A stretch of 64,000 nucleotides of DNA from NCBI GenBank assembly GCA_040902205.1, contig JBBDXR010000008.1, positions 49,677 to 113,676 on the forward strand, given 5' to 3'. A program made the translations under genes and the position numbers. The notes under the pieces were generated by a model. That model did no database searches. It was given only the letters and a program-made list of their open reading frames with translations, and was not told the origin of the DNA. The stretch comes from Anaerolineales bacterium. Lineage in GTDB: Bacteria > Chloroflexota > Anaerolineae > Anaerolineales > UBA11579. This document shows positions 29,035 to 64,000 of this stretch, piece after piece (position 1 is the stretch's first letter; each line of letters begins with the position of its first letter).

Positions 29035-29237
29035 AGAGGCAAGCCGCAACTTGTTGCGGCCGCCGCACCCCCCTTCCGCGAGGTTGTGCGATGCTGCGCT
29101 GGTGCGCGTAGGCATCTGGGCCGGCGACCTGGCTTGCCGCTCGAGGCGGATCACAGTTGCGGGACAGCGCCGGAGTCTCACCGGCTTCGCAGTTGCCGCT
29201 ATTTGAAGCGGCCACCCAAATGCAATGCTAAGCTGTA
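29006..29237 (-). promoter_or_regulatory. Cobalamin (B12) riboswitch, transcription-attenuating
   Basis: The minus-strand RNA contains GAAGCCGGUGAGACUCCGGCGCUGUCCCGCAACUGUGA, matching the conserved cobalamin-aptamer core (GGUGA..UCC...C.G..CCCGC.ACUGU.A). A B12-box-like AAGCCAGGUCGCCGGCC follows. The element sits upstream of a BtuFCD-type operon. Confidence 0.8.
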
Positions 29238-30768: not shown

Positions 30769-31443
30769 ATGGAAGAACAAAAACGCTGGGACCTTTACAA
30801 CCAGTTCTCCTTGTGGGGAGACCTGGATCGATTCACCAAGCTGCTGGCCCGCTATGAACTCTACAAGCTGATCGCAGGCAAACCGGGCGATATTGTTGAA
30901 GGGGGCGTGCTGAAGGGAGCCGGGCTGTTGTACTGGGCCAAGCTGATCGAGATCTTCGATCCCCAATCGCAGCGCAAGGCAATCGGCTTTGATACATTCG
31001 AAGGCTACCCAGAAGATGGGGCTAAGGAACATGATCGCAAGACAGCCAAAGACTTCAAACAGATACAAATCCAAAAGAGCGACGACGTCACCGCGGAAAC
31101 CATTGCCGAGGCCGCCAAGCAACAGGGCCTAGGGAAGCGGATCGAATTAGTTAAGGGCAAAGCTGAAGACAGCATGGCCAAGTATGTGAAGGAACACCCC
31201 GGGTTCAGGGTGGCGTTGCTGGACCTGGACTTTGTTTTGTACGAGCCGACGATGGCCAGCTTGCAGCACCTGTACGATCGCGTGATCCCGGGTGGAGTTG
31301 TGGTGCTGGACGAGTATGGGCTGCCAGGCTTTGGGGAAACGGAAGCAGTGGATGAGTTCTTTGGTGGACGAAAACCAATGATGCTTGCTTTTCCCTGGGC
31401 GAAGAGCCCCACGGCCTATTTTGTGAAAGAGTCCCAGGCGTGA
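30769..31443 (+). CDS. TylF/MycF-family SAM-dependent O-methyltransferase
   Basis: GDIVEGGVLKGAGLLYWAKL and DLDFVLYEPTMASLQHLYDRVIPGGVVVLDEY are the macrocin-O-methyltransferase-family motifs. Confidence 0.8.
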   Translation: MEEQKRWDLYNQFSLWGDLDRFTKLLARYELYKLIAGKPGDIVEGGVLKGAGLLYWAKLIEIFDPQSQRKAIGFDTFEGYPEDGAKEHDRKTAKDFKQIQIQKSDDVTAETIAEAAKQQGLGKRIELVKGKAEDSMAKYVKEHPGFRVALLDLDFVLYEPTMASLQHLYDRVIPGGVVVLDEYGLPGFGETEAVDEFFGGRKPMMLAFPWAKSPTAYFVKESQA

Positions 31444-32489
31444 CGCACACTGAGATCGCCATCGGTAAGCGCAAGGTCGGACCTGGCCATCCGGCCTTGA
31501 TCATCGGCGAGGTGGCGCAGGCGCATGATGGCAGCCTGGGGACGGCGCACGCCTTCATCGATGCGATCGCTGCGGCGGGAGCCGACGCGGTCAAGTTTCA
31601 AACGCATATCGCCGAAGCCGAGAGTACGCCGCAAGAAAAGTTCCGGGTCGCTTTCAGCAAGCAGGATGTAACGCGCTTTGATTATTGGAAGCGGATGGAG
31701 TTCAGCGAGGAACAGTGGCGCGGACTGGCGCAGCACGCCAGGGAGAGCAAGCTGCTGTTTTTGAGCTCGCCGTTTTCGGTCGAGGCAGCCGAACTGCTGG
31801 AGGGCGTGGGGGTGCCGGCCTGGAAGGTGGCCTCGGGTGAAGTGTCGAATACGCCGATGCTGGAAAAAATCGTGGCCACGCGGAAGCCCGTGCTGCTTTC
31901 AGCAGGGATGAGCCCGTGGGAGGAATTAGACAGAGTGGTGGCCCTCATTAAAGGAAAGTCGCCGTTGGCGATCTTTCAATGCACAACGGCCTACCCTTGC
32001 CCGCCGGGGGAAATCGGCTTGAATGTCATGGAGGAAATGCGGGCGCGTTATGCCGTTCCTGTCGGACTTTCGGACCATTCGGGCAAGATTTATGCGGGGC
32101 TGGCGGCGGCCAGTTTGGGGGCTAACCTAATCGAAGTGCACGTGACCTTGAGCAGGGAGATGTTCGGCCCGGATGTGCCTGCCTCGCTAATGCCGACCGA
32201 ACTGGGGCAACTGGTGGAAGGCGTGCGCTTCATTGAAGCTGCGCTGGCCGCCCCTGTGAATAAAGACAAAGCCGCCGGGCGAAGCGCCGAATCGCGCCGG
32301 CTATTCTTCCATAGCATCGTGGCGAAGCAGGACCTGCCGGCCGGGACCGTGCTGGCCAGAGAGCATCTGACGACCAAAAAGCCGGGGACCGGCATGGCCC
32401 CCGAGCGTATGGCGGAATTGGTCGGCCGCACATTGGCGCGGGATGTGAAGCGCGATCAACTACTGGCCGAAAAGGACCTTGCCCGATGA
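31440..32489 (+). CDS. neuB: Nonulosonic (N-acetylneuraminic-type) acid synthase with C-terminal SAF domain
   Basis: LIIGEVAQAHDGSLGTAHAFIDAIAAAGADAVKFQTH, KVASGEVSN, VGLSDHSG and IEVHVTLS match the NeuB family. GTGA overlap with the upstream MT. Confidence 0.9.
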   Translation: MTHTEIAIGKRKVGPGHPALIIGEVAQAHDGSLGTAHAFIDAIAAAGADAVKFQTHIAEAESTPQEKFRVAFSKQDVTRFDYWKRMEFSEEQWRGLAQHARESKLLFLSSPFSVEAAELLEGVGVPAWKVASGEVSNTPMLEKIVATRKPVLLSAGMSPWEELDRVVALIKGKSPLAIFQCTTAYPCPPGEIGLNVMEEMRARYAVPVGLSDHSGKIYAGLAAASLGANLIEVHVTLSREMFGPDVPASLMPTELGQLVEGVRFIEAALAAPVNKDKAAGRSAESRRLFFHSIVAKQDLPAGTVLAREHLTTKKPGTGMAPERMAELVGRTLARDVKRDQLLAEKDLAR

Positions 32490-33640
32490 CGCGTAAGGTT
32501 GGATTGGTGGTTACGGCGCGGCCCAGCTATGCACGCATCAAGACCGCGCTGCGCGCCATTAAGCAACATGGCGATCTCGAGCTGCAGCTGATCGTAGCAG
32601 CTTCGGCCTTGCTCGACCGCTACGGAAGCATCGTGGAATACATCGAGCGAGACGGGTTTGAGATCGCGGCGCGGGTCTTCATCGTGCTGGAAGGCGAGAG
32701 CCTGATCACCTCGGCCAAGTCTACAGGCTTGGGGATCATGGAACTGGCCACTATTTTTGACAATCTGCGGCCCGATGTGGTGGTCACGGTGGCGGATCGC
32801 TACGAAACCCTGGCTACCGCGGTAGCGGCCTCTTATATGAATATTCCCCTGGCCCATGTGCAGGGCGGGGAGGTCACCGGCTCTATCGATGAGAAGGTGC
32901 GCCACGCGGTAAGCAAACTGGCCGATCTGCATTTCGCCTCCACCCAGGGAGCGGCCGAGCGGTTGATCCGCATGGGGGAGGATGCCAAGAGCGTGTTTGT
33001 CACCGGTTGCCCCTCGATCGATCTGGCCGCGGATGTGTTGCGGCAACCGGAACTGGGCTTCGATCCCTTCCGGAAATACGGCGGGGTGGGCTCGGTCAAC
33101 GATCTCTCGGATGGGTACGTGGTCGTGATGCAGCACCCGGTCACCACGCAGATCGCCGAATCGCGCGCCCAGATCACCCAGACACTCGAAGCCGTGGAAG
33201 CGTTGGATCTGCCGGCGCTCTGGTTCTGGCCCAACGTGGATGCCGGCTCCGATGGCATCTCACGCGGCATTCGTATCTTCCGCGAACAGGGGCGGGGCAA
33301 GAAGTTCCATTATTTCAAGAACATGGAGCCTGAAGATTTCCTGCGTTTGATCTACAACAGCAAGGCCATTGTGGGCAATTCGAGCGTAGGGATCCGCGAA
33401 TGTTCCTTCCTTGGAGTGCCGGCAGTGAACATCGGCGAGAGACAGGCCGGGCGGGAACGCGGGCGAAACGTGATGGACGTCCCGTACGAGGCGGCGAGGA
33501 TCAGGCAGGCGCTGGATCGCCACGTGGCCAATGGCCGCTATCCCTCCGAATCGATCTACGGCGACGGCCAGGCCGGAAAATGGATCGCCGACCTATTGGC
33601 GACGACCAAACTGGGCATCACCAAGCAGATCACTTATTAG
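32486..33640 (+). CDS. neuC: UDP-N-acetylglucosamine 2-epimerase, hydrolysing type
   Basis: VVTARPSYARIK, VADRYETLA, AHVQGGEVTGSIDEKVRHAVSKLADLHF and VTGCPSIDL match the NeuC-family pattern. ATGA overlap with neuB. Confidence 0.88.
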   Translation: MTRKVGLVVTARPSYARIKTALRAIKQHGDLELQLIVAASALLDRYGSIVEYIERDGFEIAARVFIVLEGESLITSAKSTGLGIMELATIFDNLRPDVVVTVADRYETLATAVAASYMNIPLAHVQGGEVTGSIDEKVRHAVSKLADLHFASTQGAAERLIRMGEDAKSVFVTGCPSIDLAADVLRQPELGFDPFRKYGGVGSVNDLSDGYVVVMQHPVTTQIAESRAQITQTLEAVEALDLPALWFWPNVDAGSDGISRGIRIFREQGRGKKFHYFKNMEPEDFLRLIYNSKAIVGNSSVGIRECSFLGVPAVNIGERQAGRERGRNVMDVPYEAARIRQALDRHVANGRYPSESIYGDGQAGKWIADLLATTKLGITKQITY

Positions 33641-33642
33641 CC

Positions 33643-34581
33643 ATGGTAAGCCACCAAGCCCAAACGGATCGCACGCAGCGCATCGCCGCGCTGGCGTACC
33701 GCTATGCCGACCAACCCAAGGAATGGACCGAGCGCTGCAACTTGTGCGGGGGTAATTATTTTGTGCAATTGTGCGACCATGACCGATACGGGTTCGAGGC
33801 CAGCGCATTAGCATGCGCCCGTTGTGGACTCGTGTTCCTGAACCCGCGCTTGACTCGCGCGGGCTATGGCGATTTCTACGCGACCATCTATCGCCCTCTG
33901 GTGAGCGCGTATCACGGCCGGCTCATTGACGCTAAGAGCATTCAAAGAGAGCAGGGCGACTACGCAAATGAACGCGCCGTGTTCGCCGCCCCGTTTTTCG
34001 ATCAACGACCCGGTAGGCGGTTCTTGGATATCGGTGGCTCCACGGGAGTCGTGGCGCAACATTTCGCCGAGCGCTTCAACTATTCGGGCGTGGTGCTGGA
34101 CCCCTCCGCCGAGGAGCTCGGTGAGGCAAAGAAACGCGGCCTGGCCACCGTCCAGGGGCTGTTCGAAGAAGCCGATTTTGGCGGCGAAAAATTCGAGCTG
34201 GTGTTGTTGTGCCAGACCGTCGACCATCTGCTGGACATTGCCCTAACCCTGGCGAAAGTGCGGGAGTGCTTGACGAAGGACGGGATCTTCTTCATCGATA
34301 TCGTCGATTTCCGGGCGGCTTACTTGCGCAATTGGAGCGTCAGTGAAGCGATAAAGATCGACCATCCTTACTATTTGACCCAGGAGACGATAGAAGGTTA
34401 CCTGGGGCAGAAGGGATTCAGAATTTTACGCAAAGGATATGCGGCTGACCGACTGCATATCAGCTACATTTGCACAGCGGGCAAAGCGGACGCAGGCCAG
34501 CTGCCCGGGACTGAAAGTGTTGAAGGGCTGCTGCGCGAGATCCGCACAGTGCAAAATGCGCCGCGGGGCATGGCGCCATGA
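33643..34581 (+). CDS. Class I SAM-dependent methyltransferase with N-terminal Cys4 zinc-ribbon
   Basis: Start taken at ATG 33643, 2 nt after the neuC stop. CNLCGG...CARCGLVFLNP ribbon, motif I FLDIGGSTG, then ELVLLCQTVDHLLD. Confidence 0.8.
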   Translation: MVSHQAQTDRTQRIAALAYRYADQPKEWTERCNLCGGNYFVQLCDHDRYGFEASALACARCGLVFLNPRLTRAGYGDFYATIYRPLVSAYHGRLIDAKSIQREQGDYANERAVFAAPFFDQRPGRRFLDIGGSTGVVAQHFAERFNYSGVVLDPSAEELGEAKKRGLATVQGLFEEADFGGEKFELVLLCQTVDHLLDIALTLAKVRECLTKDGIFFIDIVDFRAAYLRNWSVSEAIKIDHPYYLTQETIEGYLGQKGFRILRKGYAADRLHISYICTAGKADAGQLPGTESVEGLLREIRTVQNAPRGMAP

Positions 34582-35294
34582 AGGTGCTTGGGATGGTTCC
34601 GGCGCGGGGCGGCTCAAAGGGTATTCCTAATAAGAATCTGCGCGAGCTGGCCGGAAAACCGTTGCTGGCCTATACGCTGGAAGCCGCCCGGAGTTCGGGC
34701 GTCATCGACCGGTTGGTGTTGAGCACCGAGTCGCCGGCCATTGCTGACCTGGGGCGCAGCCTGGGCATGGAGGTGCCGTTCATGCGGCCAGAGGAACTGG
34801 CCGGGGATGAGAGCCCGATGCTGGGCGTGGTGCAACACGCAGTCGTCGAACTGGAACGGCTGGGCTGGCGGCCCGATATCATTGTGCTCCTGCAGCCCAC
34901 ATCGCCATTGCGGCGCGGGGAGCGCATACGCGAGGCTGTGGAGTTATTAAAGGGCAACGATTGCGATTCGGTGGCCAGCGTTGTGGAGATCCCGGATCTG
35001 TATTCTCCGCAAAAGGCAATGAGACTCGAAGGCGGCTTCCTGAAATTTTGGACGGATAACGGGAAGGCGGTCACGCGCCGGCAGCAAGTGCAGCCAGCTT
35101 ACGCCCGCGAGGGAACCGTGTATGCCTGCAGACGGGACGTGCTGATGGAAAAAGGCAGCCTGTATGGCGATAGGTGCCTGCCTCTCGTGGTTTCCCGCGA
35201 GGAGGCGATGAGCCTGGATACGGTGGATGACTGGCGGCGAGCGGAAGAGGCAATTGAAGGCGACGGTGATCTAAAAGGGTCTCGGTGGCGGTAA
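34578..35294 (+). CDS. neuA: Acylneuraminate cytidylyltransferase (CMP-nonulosonic acid synthetase)
   Basis: VPARGGSKGIPNKNL, LLAYTLEAA and LLQPTSPLR are CMP-NeuAc synthetase motifs. ATGA overlap with the upstream MT. Confidence 0.9.
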   Translation: MKVLGMVPARGGSKGIPNKNLRELAGKPLLAYTLEAARSSGVIDRLVLSTESPAIADLGRSLGMEVPFMRPEELAGDESPMLGVVQHAVVELERLGWRPDIIVLLQPTSPLRRGERIREAVELLKGNDCDSVASVVEIPDLYSPQKAMRLEGGFLKFWTDNGKAVTRRQQVQPAYAREGTVYACRRDVLMEKGSLYGDRCLPLVVSREEAMSLDTVDDWRRAEEAIEGDGDLKGSRWR

Positions 35295-35296
35295 GA

Positions 35297-37225
35297 ATGA
35301 AACTAGAAGAAAAGGCTGCTACCTCCTCTGAACAAAGAAGATTTCTCCAGATGGTCATTAAATATTTACGACCATACACGGGGTCCGTATTGTTGCTGCT
35401 GCTGGTATATGCCAGCTTTACCGTGCTAACGGCTATACAGCCGGTGATCCTAGCCCCAATTCTTGACATCGCCATTAACAAAGGTTTGCCCCAAGGAACA
35501 AGTCAAGGCGTAAGCCTTGGCGACGTGGATTTGAATAACATCGGCCAGTATATTTTAGGTGTACTTGGGCTGAATGAGGAATCCCCGCTTCAAGTTGTCC
35601 TGATCCTGGCCATCGCTTACCTGGGAGTGTCCATTGGGACCGCGGGACTTAATTTTCTCAATTATCTTCTGTCAATTCGGATCAGAGCGACGGCAGGCCG
35701 CGATATCCAACTCGATTTATTCAGCCATCTGTTTTCCCTGTCGCTGGATTTCTTTAACAACGAGCGCACCGGGGAGATTATTGCCCGTCTCGATCAAGAC
35801 ACACGGAATGCAATGGCTAGCCTGGAAGTCTCATTGCGTAACATGCTGATCTCCCCTTTGTTGATCCTTTATTACGGATATCTTATGCTGATCACAAATA
35901 TCACATTAACGATATTTGTTGTGGCCGCGGCCCTAATGCATTACTTGTTGACCCGGGCTTTGCGCAGACCTATCCGCCGACGGACTCAAGAGCAGGTCAA
36001 CATCGGGGCCGAGGTCACGGCATATCTGCAGGAAAAATTGGCCAGTGCCCGAGTGGTAAAGACATTTGTCGCGGAAACTATTGAGACAAATAACCTCCGC
36101 AATTTGATAAACCAATTTAGGCAAGCCAACATTAAGTTCGGATTCTTTAAGCATCTGGATGACCCTGTTACCGCCTCGATAAATGCGGTTATCAACGTCG
36201 GTATATTGCTGTTTTCGATAAACGAACTATTCAGCGGAAGGTTAACAGTAACCGGCTTTCTCCTTTATCTTTTTATCGGGCGATCAATCTTAACTCCGCT
36301 AACTACGCTGACTCAATCATACAATTCTATCCAGTCTACCTTGGCGATAGGTGTGCGGGTGCGCCAATTGTTTGATATCGAACCATCAGTACGCTCCGGG
36401 ACCGAATCCATCCGTGAGTTCAACGACTCCATTCGCTTCGATAATGTATTTTTTAGCTATAAGGATTTCCCCGTTCTCCATGAGATTAGTTTCGAAATCG
36501 AAAAAGGGAAGACGACGGCGCTGGTGGGGCCCAGTGGCGGAGGAAAGTCTACAATCACCGATTTGTTATTGCGTTTTTACGACCCGCATTTAGGAAAGGT
36601 CCTAGTAGATGGTGTAGATTTGCGGGCACTTAACCTCTCGCAGTACCGCAGGCTTTATGGAGTAGTGGCGCAAGAGAGCATCTTGTTTAACGCATCCATT
36701 TCGGCAAACATAGCTTACGGATATCCCGACTTAACTAAAGAAGAAATTCAAGAAGCCGCGCGTATTGCCTATGCGCACGAATTTATTGGAGATCTGCCGG
36801 AAGGATACGATACGTTGGTTGGGGACCGCGGTGTTCGCCTTTCGGGCGGACAACGCCAACGAATTGCTATAGCCAGGGCGATTGCTCATCGTCCAAAAAT
36901 ACTCATTTTGGATGAAGCGACAAGCTCCCTGGATACTGAGGCGGAACAAAAGGTTCAATTGGCGGTTGACCGCGCTATACAGTCTACAACTGCCATCGTG
37001 ATCGCTCATCGGCTGTCAACAGTCGTACGGGCCGATCAGATTATTGTGATTGATGAAGGTCGAGTGGTGGATAAGGGTACACATCAAGAGCTTATGAGTC
37101 GTAGCAAACTGTATAAAACCCTGGCCTCTCTCCAATTCAATTCCCAAGTAGATGTCTCCGGACCGCGTGAGCGCACGCAAGGTGTAGCGCTCGGCGAAGC
37201 AGATCATTCTGAAGCGAAAGACTAA
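35297..37225 (+). CDS. Fused TMD-NBD ABC exporter (MsbA/PglK-like)
   Basis: Start taken at ATG 35297. Six N-terminal TM helices, Walker A GPSGGGKST, signature LSGGQRQRIAIARAI, Walker B ILILDEATSSLD, H-loop IAHRLST. The gene is AT-richer than its neighbours. Confidence 0.88.
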   Translation: MKLEEKAATSSEQRRFLQMVIKYLRPYTGSVLLLLLVYASFTVLTAIQPVILAPILDIAINKGLPQGTSQGVSLGDVDLNNIGQYILGVLGLNEESPLQVVLILAIAYLGVSIGTAGLNFLNYLLSIRIRATAGRDIQLDLFSHLFSLSLDFFNNERTGEIIARLDQDTRNAMASLEVSLRNMLISPLLILYYGYLMLITNITLTIFVVAAALMHYLLTRALRRPIRRRTQEQVNIGAEVTAYLQEKLASARVVKTFVAETIETNNLRNLINQFRQANIKFGFFKHLDDPVTASINAVINVGILLFSINELFSGRLTVTGFLLYLFIGRSILTPLTTLTQSYNSIQSTLAIGVRVRQLFDIEPSVRSGTESIREFNDSIRFDNVFFSYKDFPVLHEISFEIEKGKTTALVGPSGGGKSTITDLLLRFYDPHLGKVLVDGVDLRALNLSQYRRLYGVVAQESILFNASISANIAYGYPDLTKEEIQEAARIAYAHEFIGDLPEGYDTLVGDRGVRLSGGQRQRIAIARAIAHRPKILILDEATSSLDTEAEQKVQLAVDRAIQSTTAIVIAHRLSTVVRADQIIVIDEGRVVDKGTHQELMSRSKLYKTLASLQFNSQVDVSGPRERTQGVALGEADHSEAKD

Positions 37226-56344: not shown

Positions 56345-57502
56345 ATGGCACCAAAAGAAGGGACGCTATCTATCGTCCTGCTGGGCACGCAAATGGAAGT
56401 GGCTGGCTCGCAGCGCAATCTGCTCGCCCAGGCCCGGTGGTTTCACCTACAAGGGCATCGAGTCAAAGCCGTTTTTTTCTACGATAAGCAAGGTCTGCAC
56501 GAGAAGTGGCAGGCCGAATCCGCCTTCCCCGTCGTCTCATTGAATGGTTGGAAATCGGGATCATCGGGCTTCCGCAATTACCTAAGGCTGGGACCAGCTC
56601 TCCTCAGGCTATTTCGATTGCTTAGGGATGACGTGGACGTGATCGTCGCCTTCACGCCGCACAGCAATTTGCTGGGGCTTCCCCTGGCATGGCTGGCGGG
56701 GGTACCGGGCCGCATTGGGTCGCACCGCGGTTATATCGAAGGTTCCTCAAAGTTTATGCAGCGGCTGCACGGCCGCCTGACAAATTCGCGCCTGTGCGGC
56801 GCCATGGTGGCGGTCTCCTCACAAGTAAGAGAGAATGCCATCCATGAGGAAGGCGCGCGGCCAGAACGCGTCGTGGTGATCCCGAATGGCATCGATCCCC
56901 CGGCCTTCAAGGCGGGAAAACGGGATGCCACACGTACGCAACTGGGGGTACCGGAGAGTGGACTGCTGCTGATAACCGTGGGCCGCTTGACCATCCAGAA
57001 GGGACACACCTATTTGCTCGATGCGATCGCGCAAATGGCTCCCCGGCATCCCGAACTTCGCTTCGCCTTCGCGGGAGAAGGCCCCCTGCGCGCCGAACTG
57101 GAGGCCAAAGCACAGCAGCTGGGAATTTCCAAGAGCATATTATGGCTGGGGATTCGGGAGGACATCGGGGATCTGCTTTCCGCTGCAGACGTATTTGTGC
57201 AACCCTCGCTTTGGGAAGGATTGTCGCGAGCGCTGTTGGAGGCGCTTTTTGTCGGTTTGCCGGTCTTGTCCACCAACGTGGAAGGGGTAACCGACGTGGT
57301 TGAAGATGGAAAGAGCGCCTTGCTCATTCCCGCGGGAGACGTCCCCGCGCTGGCGAAGGCGATGGAACGCATGGTTGGGGATGCCGAGCTACGCAAGCGC
57401 CTGGCCCGCGCCGGGCAGGAGAAAGCGAAGGCACAGCACAGCCTGGAAGGCATGTGCATTGCATACGAGGCTCTCATGCGCAAGGTATTGGATGCCAGCT
57501 AA
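56345..57502 (+). CDS. Glycosyltransferase, GT4-like (GT-B)
   Basis: QPSLWEGLSRALLEALFVGLPVLSTNVEGVTDVV. Confidence 0.85.
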   Translation: MAPKEGTLSIVLLGTQMEVAGSQRNLLAQARWFHLQGHRVKAVFFYDKQGLHEKWQAESAFPVVSLNGWKSGSSGFRNYLRLGPALLRLFRLLRDDVDVIVAFTPHSNLLGLPLAWLAGVPGRIGSHRGYIEGSSKFMQRLHGRLTNSRLCGAMVAVSSQVRENAIHEEGARPERVVVIPNGIDPPAFKAGKRDATRTQLGVPESGLLLITVGRLTIQKGHTYLLDAIAQMAPRHPELRFAFAGEGPLRAELEAKAQQLGISKSILWLGIREDIGDLLSAADVFVQPSLWEGLSRALLEALFVGLPVLSTNVEGVTDVVEDGKSALLIPAGDVPALAKAMERMVGDAELRKRLARAGQEKAKAQHSLEGMCIAYEALMRKVLDAS

Positions 57503-59552
57503 GAGATCCTCGAGAAACGCAAGGCTAGCTAAGATAGCGCTGCTGGTTGCACTTGCCTTCTTGCTGCTATTGGCCGGCGCCGAGATCTTTAATCTTGGCT
57601 GGGGCTCCGGATCCTGGCTGGGCAGATTGTCGGCTAAATGGGCTGTTACCTTATTTGCCTTCTATGTCTTTTTTGCGGGATTGTTCGCACTTGCGTATGC
57701 CTGGCTGTTTTCTCCGCAATGGACGGGGTTGGAGAAGCGCATCATAGGCGCGCGCAAATCGCTGTGCCAGTGGCGCTGGTTGCCCGCGGTGCTTGCCGCG
57801 CTCACCCCGGCCTGGTTCGTGTATTACTCGCCCTGGGGGGCGTTGTTCGTGGGGTTATTTTTCCGCATCCTGGTTTTCGGCATCGCCGTATTACTTGTCG
57901 CCTATTTCCTTGCGCGCAGCGAAACCAAACTGATCACCTGGCAGACTTTTCTGCTATCCGGTCTGGCGGTTGGGACGTTTCTAGTTTTGGCTGAATCCTT
58001 TGTGCTGGTTACAGATTATCCGTTCGCGCTGCACTGGTCTGAGGGGAATCGTTTGTGGGACTACTCGGTACTCTTCGGCCGCGATCGATACAACTATTCG
58101 GGGGAGGGGCCAATCCTCGCCCGCATCAATCCCACGCGCCAGTGGTTGTGGGGATTGCCCTTTCTTATCCCACAGTTGCCTATCTGGGCGACCCGCCTAT
58201 GGGGCGCCGTCCTGGTTACCATCCCGTACGCGCTGTTGGGTTGGGCCGCGTTTTGGCCGGGGATCAAGTATCGCGGCCCATGGATACTGGCCGGATTCTG
58301 GGCGCTCATCTTCCTGAACCAGGGACCTATCTACACCCCGCTCGTGCTGGCAGCGATCATTGTGGCGCTGGCCCGCCGCGGTCCGTGGTGGCTGGCCCTG
58401 CCGCTGGTCTACCTGAGCGGCATCTATGCCAGCATCAGCCGTTATACATGGAGTTTCGCCGTTGGCATCTGGGCGGTCGTTTTGAGCCTGGGAGATGCCG
58501 TGCTGGAGCATGGGAAACTGATCTGGCGCGATTGGCTGCGCAGCGCCGCGTTGGGGTTAGCTGGCATCTGGAGCAGAGGTTTGCCGATCCTTATTGGGGT
58601 AGCGATTGGCTTCTTCCCCTTTTTGGTTGCGGGCGATGCAGGCGCGCCCAGCCTGCCATCGCAATCTGTTGAAACGTTAGAGGGTCTACAGGCCGTAACT
58701 ACCCGGCAACCCTTCCTTTGGGACCGTTTGTTTCCCAACGGTATCTATCCGCCGGGAATTTTATTGGGGCTTTCGCTAGCCACGCTCCCGCTGATTTTGT
58801 TGCTTTATTACCTGGCAAGAACCGGGAAGTGGAAAACTACGTTTTTAGAGCAACTTGTCACGATAGCTGGCTTGGGGTCCATGCTGCTCGTGGGCGTGAT
58901 CGCCAGCGCCAAAGTGGGTGGGGGGACCGACCTGCATAACATGGACATGTTCCTTGTTGGCCTGGTGCTGGTGGCTGGCTTGGCGTGGGAGGGCGGACTG
59001 GCCTCAAGGCTGGCTGGACTGTTCAAGACCTCCGCCGCTGTCCGCTGGCTGCTGGCGGCGACGATCATCATCCCAGCCTTTATGCCCATGGTGGCGGGCA
59101 GGCCGCTTGAGCTGCCGTCAGCCGAGCGCACAGAATTCGTCCTCGGTCGGATTCAGGATTATGTGGCCTGCGCCCGCCAGTATGGCGACGTGCTATTCAT
59201 GGACCAACGCCAGCTCATTACCTTCGGCCTGGTTGGGGATGTGCCGTTGGTGGTGGAGTACGAAAAGAAATTCGTCATGGACCAGGCCCTGGCCGCCAAC
59301 GAGGCTTATTTTGCGGAATTCCGTTCCGATCTGGCGTCGGGACGCTTTTCGCTCATCGTCACCGAGCGCGAGGCGCTTCTATATAAAGAGCCAGACATCG
59401 AAAGCATTGGGGACGATCTAATCGAAGAAAACAATGCCTGGGTTACGTGGGTAACCACGCCGCTCTTGGCGTATTATGAATCGGTGGCCGATTTCAAAGA
59501 TGCGGCGATAGAACTGTTCTTGCCCAAAGAGCGCAGTTTTGACTGCCCATAA
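57492..59552 (+). CDS. Large polytopic membrane protein with C-terminal soluble domain (possible GT-C enzyme or polymerase)
   Basis: Start taken at ATG 57492; the upstream part of the track ORF overlaps the preceding GT4 gene. About 15 or more hydrophobic helices. The last roughly 150 aa are hydrophilic. No family motif recognised. Confidence 0.45.
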   Translation: MPAKRSSRNARLAKIALLVALAFLLLLAGAEIFNLGWGSGSWLGRLSAKWAVTLFAFYVFFAGLFALAYAWLFSPQWTGLEKRIIGARKSLCQWRWLPAVLAALTPAWFVYYSPWGALFVGLFFRILVFGIAVLLVAYFLARSETKLITWQTFLLSGLAVGTFLVLAESFVLVTDYPFALHWSEGNRLWDYSVLFGRDRYNYSGEGPILARINPTRQWLWGLPFLIPQLPIWATRLWGAVLVTIPYALLGWAAFWPGIKYRGPWILAGFWALIFLNQGPIYTPLVLAAIIVALARRGPWWLALPLVYLSGIYASISRYTWSFAVGIWAVVLSLGDAVLEHGKLIWRDWLRSAALGLAGIWSRGLPILIGVAIGFFPFLVAGDAGAPSLPSQSVETLEGLQAVTTRQPFLWDRLFPNGIYPPGILLGLSLATLPLILLLYYLARTGKWKTTFLEQLVTIAGLGSMLLVGVIASAKVGGGTDLHNMDMFLVGLVLVAGLAWEGGLASRLAGLFKTSAAVRWLLAATIIIPAFMPMVAGRPLELPSAERTEFVLGRIQDYVACARQYGDVLFMDQRQLITFGLVGDVPLVVEYEKKFVMDQALAANEAYFAEFRSDLASGRFSLIVTEREALLYKEPDIESIGDDLIEENNAWVTWVTTPLLAYYESVADFKDAAIELFLPKERSFDCP

Positions 59553-62178
59553 ATCAAAATTGCTTAAGAACCCGAAGAGCGGCGCGGCCCAGCGGCTGCG
59601 CGCCTTTACGCTCCTGGCGGCCCTGGAGGCCATGGGGGCGATCGGCCTGATATTCAGCGCGCCCAGCGAGGGGAGTTCGGCCTGGCTGCTCGGCCTGTCA
59701 CCGGCGCGTTGGTTATTGCTGGCCGCCCTGCTGGTTATTGCGGCGTCGTTCGCGGTCCTATACTGGCTGAATTTGAAGGGCCACAAAGTTTGGCAGAGCA
59801 TTGAAAAGAGAATCCTAGCCGCGGTTGCGCACCCGGTTCTTTATGCAGTGATCATCGGCGCGGCTTTGCTTTTATCGGTCCTTTCTTTTTACCTCTGCAT
59901 CCTCACCTATAAATTCACTGACGAGTTCGTCCACGCCTGGCTTCTGCGCCTATTTCCAGCATTGGCCTGGCTCCTTCTGTTCAGCTTGCAAACCCTGGTC
60001 TTTGCGCCTTTGCTGCGCGCCTCCAAGAGCGAGGCTTTTAATATCAAGGCCTGGCTGCCTGGCGGATATGCCTTAGTCGTCATCGCGGCCGTTGCCCTCT
60101 TCATGTGGGGCACGGGCCTGGGTTTGCAACCGGACCGGGCGGGCTGGGACACGCCAGGTGTTCCACTTTTGGCCACGCAGGTCTTGTTGGCCTCGTTTGG
60201 GGCTGGGCTGCTCTATCTGCTTTTGATATTTATCGAACGACGATTCGGCTGGCAACTTTCTCGTGTGGACCTGATCGCCGCCTTTGTCTTGTGGGTGCTT
60301 GCCATTTGGATCTGGCAGGCTCAATCCCTTACGCCCACCTTCTTTTCACCAACTCCGCGGGCGCCGAATTTCGAATACTATCCACAATCGGACGCAGCCA
60401 CGCACGACCTTTCGGCCCAAAGCCTGTTGGTCGGAGAGGGATTCAACGACGTAATCGAAAAACCGCTTTACAGTTTTTTCTTAGCCATCCTGCACACGCT
60501 GGCAGGGCAGGGCTATCTGAACGTGGTCGCCGTCCAGATCGTGGTGCTGGCGCTCTTCCCCGCAATACTCTTCTTGCTGGGCAGCCAGCTGCACCACCGC
60601 CTCACGGGTTTGCTTTTGGCGCTGGCCGTCATCCTGCGCGAGCAAAATGCCATCGCGCTCTCCGGGGATATCAACGTTTCGCATTCCAAACTGCTGATGA
60701 CCGACCTCCCGGCGGCGTTGGGCATGGCTCTCCTGACGCTGCTCGTGTTGCGTTGGTTCCAAGCGGACCGGCGCGATTTACGATGGCCGCTGTGGGTGGG
60801 CGGTGCACTCGGCTTGTTGCTGCTGCTGCGCTCGCAGACGCTCATCTTCTTGCCGGTCGCCCTGATCCTTGCCTTTTGCCAGGCGGGCAAGATCCTGCGC
60901 ATCCGACTGCAATATGCGGGGCTGCTTTTGCTCGGCTTTCTGTTGGCCGCACTCCCGTGGATGTTCAGGAATTATCAATACACAGGGCAATTTGGATATT
61001 CGCAGCCGCTACAGGCCTTGTACCTGGCCAAGCAATACAGCCTGACCCCTGAATTGGGTGATCCGGGTTTCCCTGAGGGGACACCCGTGTCGGATTACGT
61101 GTCGTTGGGCTTCTCCAAGGTGGCCCAGTTCACTCTTACATATCCCGGTGAGGTGGCGCGCTTTGTCGTCGCCCACTTTTTCCACAATGAAGTCTCCGCA
61201 TTGTTGGCGCTGCCGATGCGTTTTGATCTGACTGACAAGATCGTCACGTTCTATAACTTGCGGCCTTATTGGCTGGGAGCTGAGGATCGTTTGTGGAGCG
61301 AATGTTGTTCGCTGGATACCTATGTCAGTGATACGCCCTATTGGCAGAACTGGGATGGGCAGATCCCCAACGATGCGTGGCTGCCGTTGGCGTTCAACCT
61401 GACTGTCGTCGCTATTGGGGTAGGCGCCGCGTGGAGGAAAACGGGCTGGCTGGTCCTGGTGCCGCTCGGAGTGCACGTTCTGTACAACTTGAGCACGGCG
61501 GTGGCCCGCGTGTCGGGCTGGCGCCTGATCCTGCCTGTGGACTGGGTACTGACCCTTTTTTATTGCGCGGGGTTAGCTCAACTGACGTTGTGGGGCTGGT
61601 CCTACCTATTTGAATCCAGGCAGGCCAAAGCCGAAAAGCGCGCGCGGCCCAGGCCAACGAGCCGGCGGCAACAGCGGTTGCCGCAGTGGGCCGCGGCTAT
61701 CTTGCTTGCCGGCCTGCTGCTTCCAGTGGCGGAGCTAGCGGTTCCCGCCCGCTTCCCGGTCTTGGACGCGGCCACGGCGCAAGCCCAATGGGAAACTTCC
61801 GATCTGGCGCAGATGACCGGCCTGAACCTGCAAGGCTTCCTCGGGCAGCCGGGGGCCAAGGCCATCTGGGGGCGGGCGCTCTATCCTCGCTTCTATGCCA
61901 CCGGGGTCGGCGAATCGGGAGGCGAATCCGCATCCAATCCCCTGCCCTTCTCCAGGATGGCTTTTCGGGTCGTGGGTCCTATGAGAGACCAGGTGGCCCT
62001 GCCGTTGGCTGCGCCTCCGGGATTTTTCCCCAATGCCGTGGATGTACTGGTCCTGGGTTGTTCGGAGGAAACCTATTTTCGAGCGGCCGCGGTTGTCTTT
62101 TTGAATTACGAAGGACAGGATCTGCTGGCGGATAATTCCGACGCATTCATTTGTGCGGATAGTGAAAACTTTCAGTAG
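59539..62178 (+). CDS. GT-C-family (ArnT/PMT_2-like) polytopic glycosyltransferase with large C-terminal domain
   Basis: 879 aa with many TM helices. An early-loop acidic segment (YPQSDAATHDLSAQSLL) is followed by PLYSFFLAILHTLAGQGY, resembling PMT_2/ArnT-family signatures. Confidence 0.55.
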   Translation: MTAHKSKLLKNPKSGAAQRLRAFTLLAALEAMGAIGLIFSAPSEGSSAWLLGLSPARWLLLAALLVIAASFAVLYWLNLKGHKVWQSIEKRILAAVAHPVLYAVIIGAALLLSVLSFYLCILTYKFTDEFVHAWLLRLFPALAWLLLFSLQTLVFAPLLRASKSEAFNIKAWLPGGYALVVIAAVALFMWGTGLGLQPDRAGWDTPGVPLLATQVLLASFGAGLLYLLLIFIERRFGWQLSRVDLIAAFVLWVLAIWIWQAQSLTPTFFSPTPRAPNFEYYPQSDAATHDLSAQSLLVGEGFNDVIEKPLYSFFLAILHTLAGQGYLNVVAVQIVVLALFPAILFLLGSQLHHRLTGLLLALAVILREQNAIALSGDINVSHSKLLMTDLPAALGMALLTLLVLRWFQADRRDLRWPLWVGGALGLLLLLRSQTLIFLPVALILAFCQAGKILRIRLQYAGLLLLGFLLAALPWMFRNYQYTGQFGYSQPLQALYLAKQYSLTPELGDPGFPEGTPVSDYVSLGFSKVAQFTLTYPGEVARFVVAHFFHNEVSALLALPMRFDLTDKIVTFYNLRPYWLGAEDRLWSECCSLDTYVSDTPYWQNWDGQIPNDAWLPLAFNLTVVAIGVGAAWRKTGWLVLVPLGVHVLYNLSTAVARVSGWRLILPVDWVLTLFYCAGLAQLTLWGWSYLFESRQAKAEKRARPRPTSRRQQRLPQWAAAILLAGLLLPVAELAVPARFPVLDAATAQAQWETSDLAQMTGLNLQGFLGQPGAKAIWGRALYPRFYATGVGESGGESASNPLPFSRMAFRVVGPMRDQVALPLAAPPGFFPNAVDVLVLGCSEETYFRAAAVVFLNYEGQDLLADNSDAFICADSENFQ

Positions 62179-62219
62179 GTATAATCCTTTGGCGCGCCTC
62201 GTCTGAGGCGTTCTTGTTT

Positions 62220-63704
62220 ATGTCCATTGCCCTGATCAATCCCAATCTCGTGGTGCAGCGCAGCGATCCATTTACAACCGGGATCGTGTATATGCCGATC
62301 AGCCTGGCGTATCTGGCGGCCGCCCTGCGCCAAGGCGGCCATGCGCTCCAGGTGATCGATGCATATGCGGCCGCGCCGCGCCGGAGCCGCGCCGAAGGCA
62401 AGTTCCAGTTCTTCGGCCTGACCGAAGCCGAGATCGTTGGGCAATTGCCCAGCGAGCTGCGGGCGGTCTTCGTGTATGCCATCAACCTGACCAACCATCT
62501 TTCGACGGTGTCGATTGTCAGCGCGGTCAAACAGGCCTTTCCCGCCGTGCCCGTTATCGTGGTCGAGAACACCCAAGCCGTGACGGCCTATGCTCTTTCC
62601 CAGGTCGCCGAAGAGTTCTACGCGGCGGGTGCCGATTACATTCTGACCGGTGAACCTGAACGACGGGCGATCCAAATACTCGAAGCACTAGTTGGCCAGG
62701 CGAACGAGGCCGATTTGCGGAAAATCGACGGGCTGGGTTCGCCTGCTTTTTATAATCCGCCAAGCAGAGTTCTTTCTGAGGAAGAGCTCAATACGCTGCC
62801 GTTTCCCGCCTGGGATCTGTTCCCTCTCGAGAACTACTGGTCGCTGCGTTTCGCCCATGGGCCGCTTTCGGCACGGCGTTATTTGCCCCTGCTTACTTCG
62901 CGCGGCTGCCCCTACCCGTGCGGTTTTTGCGTAGTGCCGGCCACCAACAATCAGAAGTGGCGTCCGCGCTCGGTGGGCAACGTGGTCGATGAACTCGAAC
63001 ATTTCGTCACCACACTGGCTGTCCGCGAATTCCACATCGAGGACCTGGACCCCACGATATCCGACGAGCGCATTCGGGGCATTTGCGGCGATATCATCCG
63101 CCGGGGTTTGAAGGTAACCTGGAAGATCGCCGCGGGCACGAAAGTGGAAACGATGCGCGACGAGGAGACGATCGACCTGATGGCCAGGGCGGGATGCCGC
63201 TACATTTCCATCTCTCCGGAGACCGGGTCGGCGCGCCTGCTGAAGTTAATGCGTAAGCCCTTCAATTTGGAGCATGCGGTTCGCCTGGTGAAGCGCATGG
63301 ACCAGGTCGGCATCCGCTCCCAGGCCTGCTTCGTCCTGGGCTATCCCGGGGAGACGGAAGAGGATCTGCAGATGACTTGGAACCTGGTGCGCGACCTTAC
63401 CCGCGTGGGCGTGGACGAGATCGCCCTGTTCATCGTCACCCCAGTGCCTGGCTCCTCGATCCACGAAAAGTTTTCCGGATATACGACTCTATCGGAACTG
63501 AACTTCAGCCCCACCTGGCGCGGCGACTACGCCGGGCTTAATCGTTTCCGAGTACGTTTGTATGCGCACTTCCTGTGGTGGAAACTGCGTTATCATCCCC
63601 TCAAATTGCTGCGCCAGCCCTTGAATTTCTTGAGGCGCCGCTTTGAGACCAAGATGGAAATGGTGCCTTACCGAGCGTTGGTGCTGCGCTGGCTAAGCCG
63701 ATGA
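62220..63704 (+). CDS. B12-binding-domain radical SAM protein (class B rSAM)
   Basis: Start taken at ATG 62220. N-terminal B12-binding-like Rossmann segment, radical SAM cluster motif SRGCPYPCGFCVV (CxxxCxxC), and ISISPETGS. Confidence 0.82.
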   Translation: MSIALINPNLVVQRSDPFTTGIVYMPISLAYLAAALRQGGHALQVIDAYAAAPRRSRAEGKFQFFGLTEAEIVGQLPSELRAVFVYAINLTNHLSTVSIVSAVKQAFPAVPVIVVENTQAVTAYALSQVAEEFYAAGADYILTGEPERRAIQILEALVGQANEADLRKIDGLGSPAFYNPPSRVLSEEELNTLPFPAWDLFPLENYWSLRFAHGPLSARRYLPLLTSRGCPYPCGFCVVPATNNQKWRPRSVGNVVDELEHFVTTLAVREFHIEDLDPTISDERIRGICGDIIRRGLKVTWKIAAGTKVETMRDEETIDLMARAGCRYISISPETGSARLLKLMRKPFNLEHAVRLVKRMDQVGIRSQACFVLGYPGETEEDLQMTWNLVRDLTRVGVDEIALFIVTPVPGSSIHEKFSGYTTLSELNFSPTWRGDYAGLNRFRVRLYAHFLWWKLRYHPLKLLRQPLNFLRRRFETKMEMVPYRALVLRWLSR

Positions 63705-64000
63705 TGGCCAGACAAGCTGCTTCGACAAAGCGGGCTCATTCATATGGAGAGCAGCGCACCTTCCGCGGGCTGGAGAATTTTGCCATCCGCCGCCGCTTAT
63801 TACGCGCCCGTTTATTTCTCGACCTTTTGGTTGTACAAAACCCTGGCAAGCAACTTCATTGCCTCGAACTGGGCTGCGGGTATTGGGGGCGCAACCTAGT
63901 TGCGCTAAGCCGGGATTATCCGGGAATCGAGTTCAGCGGAGTGGATCTGTCCGTTTCCAAAGAGGCCAGCGGGTTTGAGCTTATCGAGGCAGACCTGACC
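63701..64000 (+). CDS. Class I SAM-dependent methyltransferase, 3' end outside window
   Basis: Hand translation gives MMARQAASTKRAHSYGEQRTFRGLENF...LHCLELGCGYWGRNL...GVDLS, with motif I LELGCG. ATGA overlap with the rSAM stop. Confidence 0.65.
   Translation, partial: MMARQAASTKRAHSYGEQRTFRGLENFAIRRRLLRARLFLDLLVVQNPGKQLHCLELGCGYWGRNLVALSRDYPGIEFSGVDLSVSKEASGFELIEADLT

Follow-up and report, generated by a model that had tools for sequence, protein, structure and literature searches.

Among the radical S-adenosylmethionine (SAM) enzymes that act on sugars, AprD4 is a 1,2-diol dehydratase working on the sugar ring of paromamine. GenK, GenD1, Fms7, and MoeK5, from aminoglycoside and moenomycin pathways, depend on cobalamin and methylate sugar carbons (families, PMC12931638; GenK, PMC4039129 and PMC4340712). 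B12-type radical SAM enzymes fall into more than 100 groups, most of them without a known function (PMC12931638). Here we discuss a gene of this kind of architecture that lies at the end of a 64,000-nucleotide (nt) stretch from an Anaerolineales bacterium (GenBank assembly GCA_040902205.1, contig JBBDXR010000008.1; the whole stretch is called the window hereafter). The best explanation we can offer is that its product tailors, by radical chemistry, a surface sugar that is lipid-linked and probably a furanose, working together with the enzymes of a small gene cassette. We put the probability of this reading, cassette steps included, at roughly 0.5.

The gene and its two diagnostic motifs are located as follows.

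62220..63704, forward strand: radical SAM gene, 494 amino acids (aa), class-B architecture (open reading frame listed as 62214/62220-63704)
62907..62930, forward strand: CX3CX2C motif of the [4Fe-4S]/SAM cluster, Cys230/Cys234/Cys237 within SRGCPYPCGFC
62565..62597, forward strand: clade signature ENTQAVTAYAL (aa 116-126), in place of GGxH and including a 7-residue insertion

Homologs begin at MSIALINP, and so does P0001 (494 aa, 'MAG: radical SAM protein [Anaerolineales bacterium]', on a 194.6-kb contig of an Anaerolineales metagenome-assembled genome, MAG), which is 100% identical to the protein in the window; we therefore place the start at ATG 62220. A Rossmann N-domain (aa 1-160) is followed by a linker, a TIM-barrel radical SAM core, and C-terminal helices ending in a conserved FETKMEM. 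The cluster motif sits in TSRGCPYPCGFCVVP (aa 226-240), its cysteines are kept in 55 of 56 aligned homologs, and the Pfam family Radical_SAM (PF04055) matches with an E-value of 1.6e-19 (71.1 bits, cut-off 29.5). The 494-aa frame with its CX3CX2C motif, already named in a preliminary description of the window, is thus confirmed.

The AlphaFold2 model, with 56 homologs as input, reaches a predicted local distance difference test (pLDDT) score of 95.8 and a predicted template modeling (TM) score of 0.94, and its N-terminal domain is a five-strand Rossmann fold. Searched with this model, Foldseek matched many radical SAM structures at probability 1.00, with a partial TIM-barrel fold. Against the Protein Data Bank (PDB), AprD4 came first (6FD2, TM-scores 0.68/0.73), followed by QCMT/MgmA (9CCB), TsrM, OxsB, and CysS. 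The family profile matches QCMT (9CCB, 110.9 bits, query 80-479), TokK (88-381), OxsB (63-371), and CysS (76-298), in each case including part of the cobalamin domain, whereas its similarity to AprD4 is confined to the radical SAM core (query 178-422). By fold and profile alignment, the architecture is of the class-B type, with an N-domain homologous to true B12 domains. In this sense of fold and homology the earlier term 'B12-binding-type' is sound; as evidence of cobalamin binding it is not, since the match to the Pfam B12-binding family (PF02310) stays below threshold.

What the enzyme works on is best read from its neighbors. Taking one genome per species, we collected 63 ortholog loci, called and clustered the open reading frames of each, and mapped their gene order; neighborhood counts refer to the 45 loci with enough flanking DNA. 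The orthologous group is tightly conserved (41-86% identical) across at least ten bacterial phyla, with loci from Anaerolineales, other Chloroflexota, Planctomycetes, Nitrospirae, Omnitrophota, Bdellovibrionota (including the isolate Fluviispira multicolorata), Alpha- and Deltaproteobacteria, Magnetococcales, Elusimicrobia, Nitrospina, Synergistaceae, and Actinomycetota. A 310-aa methyltransferase, here called MT310, lies a few genes or less from the radical SAM gene in 41 of the 45 loci. The order radical SAM gene, family 2 glycosyltransferase (GT2c, ~310 aa, two transmembrane helices), MT310, and flavin adenine dinucleotide (FAD) enzyme (~473 aa) recurs in 30 of them. In its full Chloroflexota form the order runs from a GT-C-like membrane transferase through the radical SAM gene (in some loci followed by a small methyltransferase), GT2c, and MT310 to a flavoenzyme of the UDP-galactopyranose mutase (UGM) type. 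A proteobacterial type (~12/45) consists of the radical SAM gene, MT310, a beta-phosphoglucomutase-like HAD protein, a nucleoside triphosphate (NTP)-transferase, a CofD::GT2 fusion, and a small Dpm1-like GT2; Dpm1-like GT2s are present in ~8-11 of the 45 loci.

Two further observations speak for a functional unit. In L003 and L011, whose radical SAM proteins are 76% identical to ours, the big glycan locus of the window is absent and housekeeping genes lie around, with five genes kept: an 863-aa membrane protein, the radical SAM gene, GT2c, MT310, and the FAD enzyme. Since only these five are retained, the cassette is self-contained rather than a feature of this glycan locus, and most likely the radical SAM gene heads a horizontally mobile unit. 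Moreover, P0123 (801 aa; L067:45-2450) is a natural fusion of a radical SAM protein carrying the clade signature (the EN clade) with a Dpm1-like GT2; a methyltransferase, a UGM-like FAD enzyme, and a 682-aa protein lie 3' of it on the same contig. As the conserved neighbors in the 45 loci are sugar-handling enzymes, a sugar is the best reading of the substrate, and the sugar-tailoring context proposed in the preliminary description is upheld across many phyla. Searches of a literature library returned no description of this radical SAM clade or of the cassette.

The cassette genes that fall within the window flank the radical SAM gene on both sides.

59539..62178, forward strand: 879-aa polytopic membrane protein, candidate GT-C/GT39-like transferase, directly upstream of the radical SAM gene and kept in Chloroflexota
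63701..64000, forward strand: small class I methyltransferase, 5' part (100 codons), its start overlapping the radical SAM stop

The stop codon of the radical SAM gene (TGA, 63702-63704) overlaps the ATG at 63701 in an ATGA, as had been noted earlier, and the window ends inside this second gene of the cassette. The frame carries LELGCG; its full-length counterpart in the syntenic locus L001 has 208-209 aa and matches Methyltransf_23. A coupling to this overlapping methyltransferase had been proposed, and it does not extend to the family: the gene is found, inserted between the radical SAM gene and GT2c, in 9 loci only (eight close Anaerolineales relatives and L015, a more distant Chloroflexota MAG), and the constant partner is MT310, beyond the window.

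The remaining partners suggest how a sugar may pass through the cassette. GT2c is predicted to be of the polyprenyl-phosphate glycosyltransferase type: it matches the AglJ model TIGR04182 (217.9 bits, cut-off 325), models of dolichyl-phosphate hexose transferase and PpgS, and the Pyrococcus Dol-P-Man synthase 5MLZ. The FAD enzyme exceeds the threshold of Pfam GLF (30.2 bits against 26.3), also falls in the 'PRK07208' family, and aligns full-length (10-455) to the UDP-galactopyranose mutase of Aspergillus fumigatus. It keeps equivalents of the UGM active-site residues His63, Trp167, Trp315, Arg327, Tyr419, Arg447, Tyr453, and Asn457, and does not keep those of Asn163 and Tyr317 (the numbering agrees with the residue types of the PDB chain at an offset of +3). 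MT310 combines an N-terminal Cys4 (Zn) ribbon with a class I methyltransferase domain; besides generic methyltransferases, it aligns across both domains to TylC3 (4RV9, residues 15-252, E 6.7e-6) and TcaB9, which are nucleoside diphosphate (NDP)-sugar C-methyltransferases.

The 879-aa protein has 14-16 predicted transmembrane helices, and many of its homologs carry PF13231, while some are named GT39. Its AlphaFold2 model (pLDDT 90.9) retrieves mostly GT-C enzymes among the Foldseek matches above probability 0.5, with weak E-values: STT3/AglB, DPY19, ArnT, ALG3, Pmt1-Pmt2, and AftB/AftD. We regard it as a candidate transferase whose donor would be a sugar on polyprenyl phosphate. In other phyla, too, the cassette is flanked by membrane proteins that are PMT/PMT_2- or YfhO-like.

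Several side observations concern the cassette and its carriers. In three Nitrospirae MAGs (L031, L032, and L056) each cassette holds three radical SAM paralogs, namely the EN-clade ortholog, a 498-aa copy, and a 470-aa B12-type copy with LGGPH, which alternate with the genes of GT2c, MT310, and the FAD enzyme. A fusion of a CofD-like domain with a GT2 (~670-690 aa, up to 925 aa) lies 3' of the radical SAM gene in L030, L037, L041, L043, L048, L052, and L060, together with a GlmU-N/IspD-like nucleotidyltransferase and the beta-phosphoglucomutase-like HAD protein; such a fusion is unusual. In one lineage only (L003:1-3300, CP075526.1, a 2.2-Mb Anaerolineales genome), genes of the mevalonate pathway (HMG-CoA reductase, HMG-CoA synthase, and thiolase) precede the cassette by 6-10 kb; a link to polyprenyl carrier supply is possible there. 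Finally, P0164, P0176, P0186, P0193, P0196, P0199, and P0213 are giant proteins of 1800-2600 aa with 2-4 tandem stretches related to the radical SAM family.

Put together, these enzymes allow a route to be proposed. The UGM-type mutase would make an NDP-hexofuranose from a nucleotide hexose, after which the 5'-deoxyadenosyl radical of the radical SAM enzyme would functionalize an unactivated sugar carbon, with the Zn-ribbon methyltransferase MT310 adding a further methyl. The GT2 would then load the tailored sugar onto polyprenyl phosphate and, after flipping, the GT-C protein would transfer it onto the glycan, or glycoprotein, that the other genes of the locus assemble. In its simplest form, the radical reaction would be a methyl-cobalamin-dependent C-methylation of the GenK type, which is the weakest link of the scheme because the B12 site is altered. 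The sugar-tailoring cassette as a whole we consider likely; granted the cassette, methylation has a little less than an even chance, and a non-methylating chemistry, though conceivable, is the less probable course.

The alteration concerns the segment after strand beta-4, which reads VVAGGPH in TokK, VVGGP in QCMT, VVGGG in TsrM, and VGN in OxsB. Here it is V-E116-N117-T-Q-A-V-T-A-Y. The pattern (V/L/I)EN(T/S)QAVT(A/G)Y with its 7-residue insertion is present in every genome-derived ortholog (41-100% identity, all phyla), and His93 covaries with it; distant paralogs in the same loci keep LGGPH. Among 1.84 billion representatives we found 1278 proteins at E <= 1e-30, and a word-indexed search gave at least 120 homologs of 67-100% identity, nearly all from Anaerolineales/Chloroflexota and with generic annotation only. 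The EN motif occurs in all 120 close database homologs listed and in many representatives down to ~32% identity. A sister set at 35-40% identity has GGxH and lacks the insertion, and still shares the ENYW..AHGP linker, SRGCPxxCxFC, and the C-terminal FETKMEM. PF02310 scores accordingly differ: 16.7 bits for the N-domain in the window (cut-off 32.1; profile positions 12-86 of 121), 32.8 bits for another EN member (again only ~12-86 of 121), and 60.2 and 66 bits, full-length, for two GGxH sisters.

The sisters also help to order events. Of the three considered, P0155 has as neighbors a methyltransferase and a protein homologous to the FAD enzyme (27-28% identity, E ~1e-44), whereas P0150 and P0157 have contexts unrelated to the cassette. 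As P0155 shares these neighbors, the association with the methyltransferase and FAD enzyme predates the change from GG to EN. The homology of the N-domain and the existence of GGxH sisters in a similar context would favor methyl-cobalamin-dependent C-methylation.

Critically speaking, a number of points weigh against our reading. GGxH has given way to ENTQAVTAY in every ortholog, PF02310 covers the first two-thirds of the domain only, and the top structural match is the cobalamin-free AprD4. According to a 2026 review, AprD4 and ArsL sit in the B12-type radical SAM network yet bind no cobalamin, illustrating that the fold alone is insufficient for binding, and non-methylating members are indistinguishable from methylases by sequence or structure (PMC12931638). 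In this genome GT2c, MT310, and the FAD enzyme are placed only by synteny with the 86%-identical locus L001. The GT-C scores of the 879-aa protein are weak (PMT_2 24.6 bits against 26.1, thus sub-threshold; Foldseek E-values of at least 0.0095, TM-scores 0.2-0.3), and no GtrA-type flippase was found among the small open reading frames beside the cassette, which encode a response regulator or a CBS protein or else are spurious. The UGM-like enzyme is missing from the proteobacterial type, so that 'furanose' may not hold for all carriers. With the site altered, the PF02310 match partial, and AprD4 and ArsL as precedents, cobalamin binding and methylation can be proposed for this clade only tentatively.

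The cobalamin dependence proposed in the preliminary description accordingly looks doubtful, given that GGxH is replaced in all orthologs and retained in the sisters. Nor do the comparisons demonstrate the C-methylation that it predicts: the top structural match is a non-methylating enzyme, and no curated whole-protein cut-off of NCBIfam is reached for AprD4 or the named B12-type radical SAM families (Sden_1168/PhpK, BchE, HpnJ, HpnR, TsrM, QCMT, BzaD, ApyD, KedN5, and the ladderane radical SAM family). The scores are as follows.

Sden_1168 P-methyltransferase: 141.8 bits, cut-off 575 (best)
BchE: 115.1 bits, cut-off 481
ApyD: 102.9 bits, cut-off 750
HpnJ: 98.5 bits, cut-off 577.6 (core only, aa 220-417)
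PhpK: 93.8 bits, cut-off 600
QCMT: 76.3 bits, cut-off 360
AprD4 (NF033070): 71.1 bits, cut-off 500
TsrM: 53.4 bits, cut-off 500
HpnR: 50.8 bits, cut-off 650

The GenK and Fom3 models are not among the matches listed. The protein does not cluster with BchE/HpnR-type families either, and the downstream genes (by synteny) are glycan genes; either outcome reversed would have told against a sugar role in the preliminary description. As the top matches are P-methyltransferases, a phosphonate role was considered and rejected: no phosphoenolpyruvate (PEP)-mutase family is found among the Pfam-annotated neighbors in L001-L003 or L067.

The rival that survives best keeps the cassette and the sugar and supposes that cobalamin was lost, leaving a non-methylating radical reaction (AprD4-like 1,2-diol dehydration, epimerization, or ring rearrangement). 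A hexofuranose could, for instance, be dehydrated at its exocyclic C5-C6 diol, and the resulting keto-sugar could then be C-methylated by MT310. A TylC3-like C-methyltransferase needs a keto-sugar, and MT310, which resembles enolate-type NDP-ketosugar C-methyltransferases, would on this account be the constant partner because it methylates the keto product; its similarity to TylC3 is weak, however. The ENTQAVTAY segment, the insertion, and the covarying His93 would form a polar cluster where the corrin would sit, and the PF02310 match ends before it. AprD4 as the top Foldseek match points the same way, and so does the lack of BtuF/BtuC homologs within 10 kb in the 63 loci and of cobalamin riboswitches in six diverse ones. 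On the other hand, the sequence likeness to AprD4 is limited to the core, the N-domain aligns instead to the cobalamin domains of QCMT, TokK, OxsB, and CysS, the structural scores of QCMT, TsrM, and OxsB nearly equal that of AprD4, and an AprD3-like reductase is not a conserved neighbor in the 45 loci with mapped gene order. On balance we deem the loss of cobalamin somewhat unlikely.

A bolder version, which we offer tentatively and hold to be rather improbable, is a so far undescribed radical transformation (dehydration, rearrangement, or unusual alkylation) of a furanose on its nucleotide or polyprenyl-phosphate carrier, yielding a new branched or deoxy surface sugar, with the TylC3-like methyltransferase acting on the keto product.

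It is also conceivable, and in our view quite unlikely, that the target is not a sugar at all, the glycosyltransferase neighbors acting on a product made from the lipid carrier, another lipid, or a peptide. The reaction would then be a polyprenyl or hopanoid-like lipid modification (HpnJ, HpnP, HpnR-like) or the methylation of a protein or of a ribosomally synthesized and post-translationally modified peptide (QCMT, ApyD-like). Model scores for HpnJ, ApyD, BchE, and QCMT are indeed of the same order (and 110.9 bits for the family profile against 9CCB), but all lie far below the family cut-offs of 360-750 bits. With HpnI/HpnJ there is already a pair of a GT2 and a B12-type radical SAM enzyme whose target is a lipid-linked sugar, and the mevalonate genes of L003 would fit a lipid, but these genes are limited to one lineage. 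The conserved partners, moreover, are enzymes of nucleotide sugars and polyprenyl-phosphate sugars, and genes for squalene-hopene cyclase, precursor peptides, and tetrapyrroles are absent among the Pfam-annotated neighbors (L001-L003 and L067). A hopanoid or lipid role was rejected on the same grounds, with no cyclase genes and mevalonate genes near L003 only.

The last rival leans on the other end of the locus, where two features lie next to each other.

29102-29234, reverse strand: cobalamin riboswitch, 59.1 bits
26198-28980, reverse strand: BtuF/BtuC/BtuD-like importer genes, 3' of the riboswitch

Both are real, as the preliminary description had it. That the locus thus brings its own B12 supply for the radical SAM enzyme is very unlikely: riboswitch and importer directly abut the first glycan-locus gene and are transcribed divergently from it, but they lie 33 kb and ~30 genes from the radical SAM gene, orthologs elsewhere lack both (63 and six loci, as above), the cassette stands alone beside housekeeping genes in L003 and L011, and BtuFCD operons under riboswitch control are a generic trait of bacteria that salvage corrinoids. 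Their adjacency to the glycan locus in this window (compared elsewhere with flanks within 10 kb) is best taken as coincidence. Separately, the 5' end of the riboswitch overlaps the listed start (29225) of the first forward-strand methyltransferase frame by ~10 nt; the true start of that frame is probably further downstream.

Returning to the tailoring enzyme, its gene probably heads its own transcription unit and is not the distal tail of a long locus, because a TATAAT box and a hairpin are conserved at the same place upstream. The gap before the start codon comprises 41 nt (window 62179-62219) and contains the following.

62180..62185, forward strand: TATAAT (-10-like) box, from sequence conservation
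62194..62211, forward strand: 7-bp leader hairpin GCGCCTC-GTCT-GAGGCGT, between the -10-like box and the start codon

Across 12 related Anaerolineales loci (L001, L003, L005-L012, L033, and L042), GGTATAAT is invariant ~39-50 nt upstream of the start, even where the flanks differ. The hairpin (minimum free energy z = -2.4) is kept in the same 12 loci with one wobble variant, and in three more loci TATAAT stands at another offset. Upstream of the ATG, GAGG occurs only in the 3' arm of the hairpin, where it is likely the Shine-Dalgarno sequence. Box and stem-loop together could possibly represent an internal promoter with a 5' hairpin that stabilizes the transcript or masks translation.

As for the wider setting, bases 1-24,800 of the window hold housekeeping genes (PPDK-like, MutS2, carboxyltransferase, biotin carboxylase, CNNM/CorC, and GlmU). 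From 29225 onward, ~33 kb of glycan genes follow on the forward strand: a NeuB/NeuC/NeuA-like set (NeuB, two UDP-GlcNAc 2-epimerases, and a CMP-transferase), an ATP-binding cassette (ABC) exporter, a deacetylase, DegT, several GT4 and GT2 genes, ~10 class I methyltransferases, and two large membrane proteins. The earlier designation as a glycan locus is therefore correct. Three of these genes serve as landmarks.

31440-32489, forward strand: NeuB, nonulosonic-acid set
34578-35294, forward strand: CMP-transferase, nonulosonic-acid set
35285-37225, forward strand: fused ABC exporter

The ~10 class I methyltransferase genes between 29225 and 57500 (forward strand), to which a TylF-like O-methyltransferase is added, point to an unusually heavily methylated glycan. 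The frames 32486-33640 and 33400-34581 (forward strand) overlap by ~240 nt; in the second, the methyltransferase domain starts only near aa 198, so that this frame probably begins further downstream or else has an unannotated N-terminal domain. Further large polytopic membrane proteins of ~690, ~860, and ~500 aa surround the cassette in Anaerolineales (window 57300-59552, forward strand; by synteny L001:15487-19629), the ~500-aa one with a weak PMT_2 match and the ~690-aa one without a Pfam match. Their presence suggests several GT-C-type transferases within one locus.

The group is tractable, being highly conserved and widespread, with a clear and testable cofactor-site signature and fixed partners that restrict the substrate to a sugar on a lipid, probably a furanose; among its carriers, at least Fluviispira multicolorata is in culture. 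With its function solved, a new sugar modification would be defined for the envelopes of Chloroflexota, Planctomycetota, Nitrospirota, and others, and it would become clear whether a single enzyme lineage can repurpose a B12 domain. Should the enzyme be an ordinary C-methylase, the result would be a modest extension of GenK-type chemistry to structural glycans. An undescribed radical transformation would mean that many phyla, mostly uncultured, display a new branched or deoxy sugar on their surfaces.

Compared with known systems, the enzyme shares the overall two-domain architecture of QCMT/MgmA, TsrM, TokK, OxsB, and CysS, class I B12-dependent radical SAM enzymes of known structure, whereas these act on peptides, beta-lactams, tryptophan, and nucleotides and carry VVGGP, VVAGGPH, VVGGG, or VGN where ours has V(E)NTQAVTAY. 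HpnI/HpnJ of hopanoid side-chain biosynthesis resembles the cassette in that a GT2 goes together with a B12-type radical SAM enzyme for remodeling a lipid-linked sugar, but our enzyme stays far below the HpnJ cut-off and hopanoid genes are not among its neighbors. The GtrB/GtrC, ArnC/ArnT, PpgS/Rv3779, Ppm1/Pmt, and AglJ-type systems likewise combine a Dpm1/AglJ-like GT2 with C-terminal transmembrane helices and PMT_2/GT39-like membrane proteins; to our knowledge, a radical SAM enzyme, a Zn-ribbon methyltransferase, and a UGM-type mutase are not known as their fixed partners. AprD4 is alike in structure, with a B12-like N-domain devoid of cobalamin and a sugar substrate of its own, and differs in its 18% identity, in sequence likeness restricted to the core, and in the AprD3-type reductase partner that our enzyme lacks as a conserved neighbor. 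With GenK, GenD1, Fms7, and MoeK5 the enzyme has in common the B12-type Rossmann N-domain, the CX3CX2C TIM barrel, and a context of sugar-modifying and glycosyltransferase genes, but a relationship at family level was not detected in the sequence, ENTQAVTAY stands in place of GGxH, and the context is a primary surface-glycan cassette over many phyla instead of an actinomycete antibiotic cluster. What is new here is a radical SAM enzyme of class-B architecture with a remodeled cofactor site, fixed in a cassette for a lipid-linked sugar.

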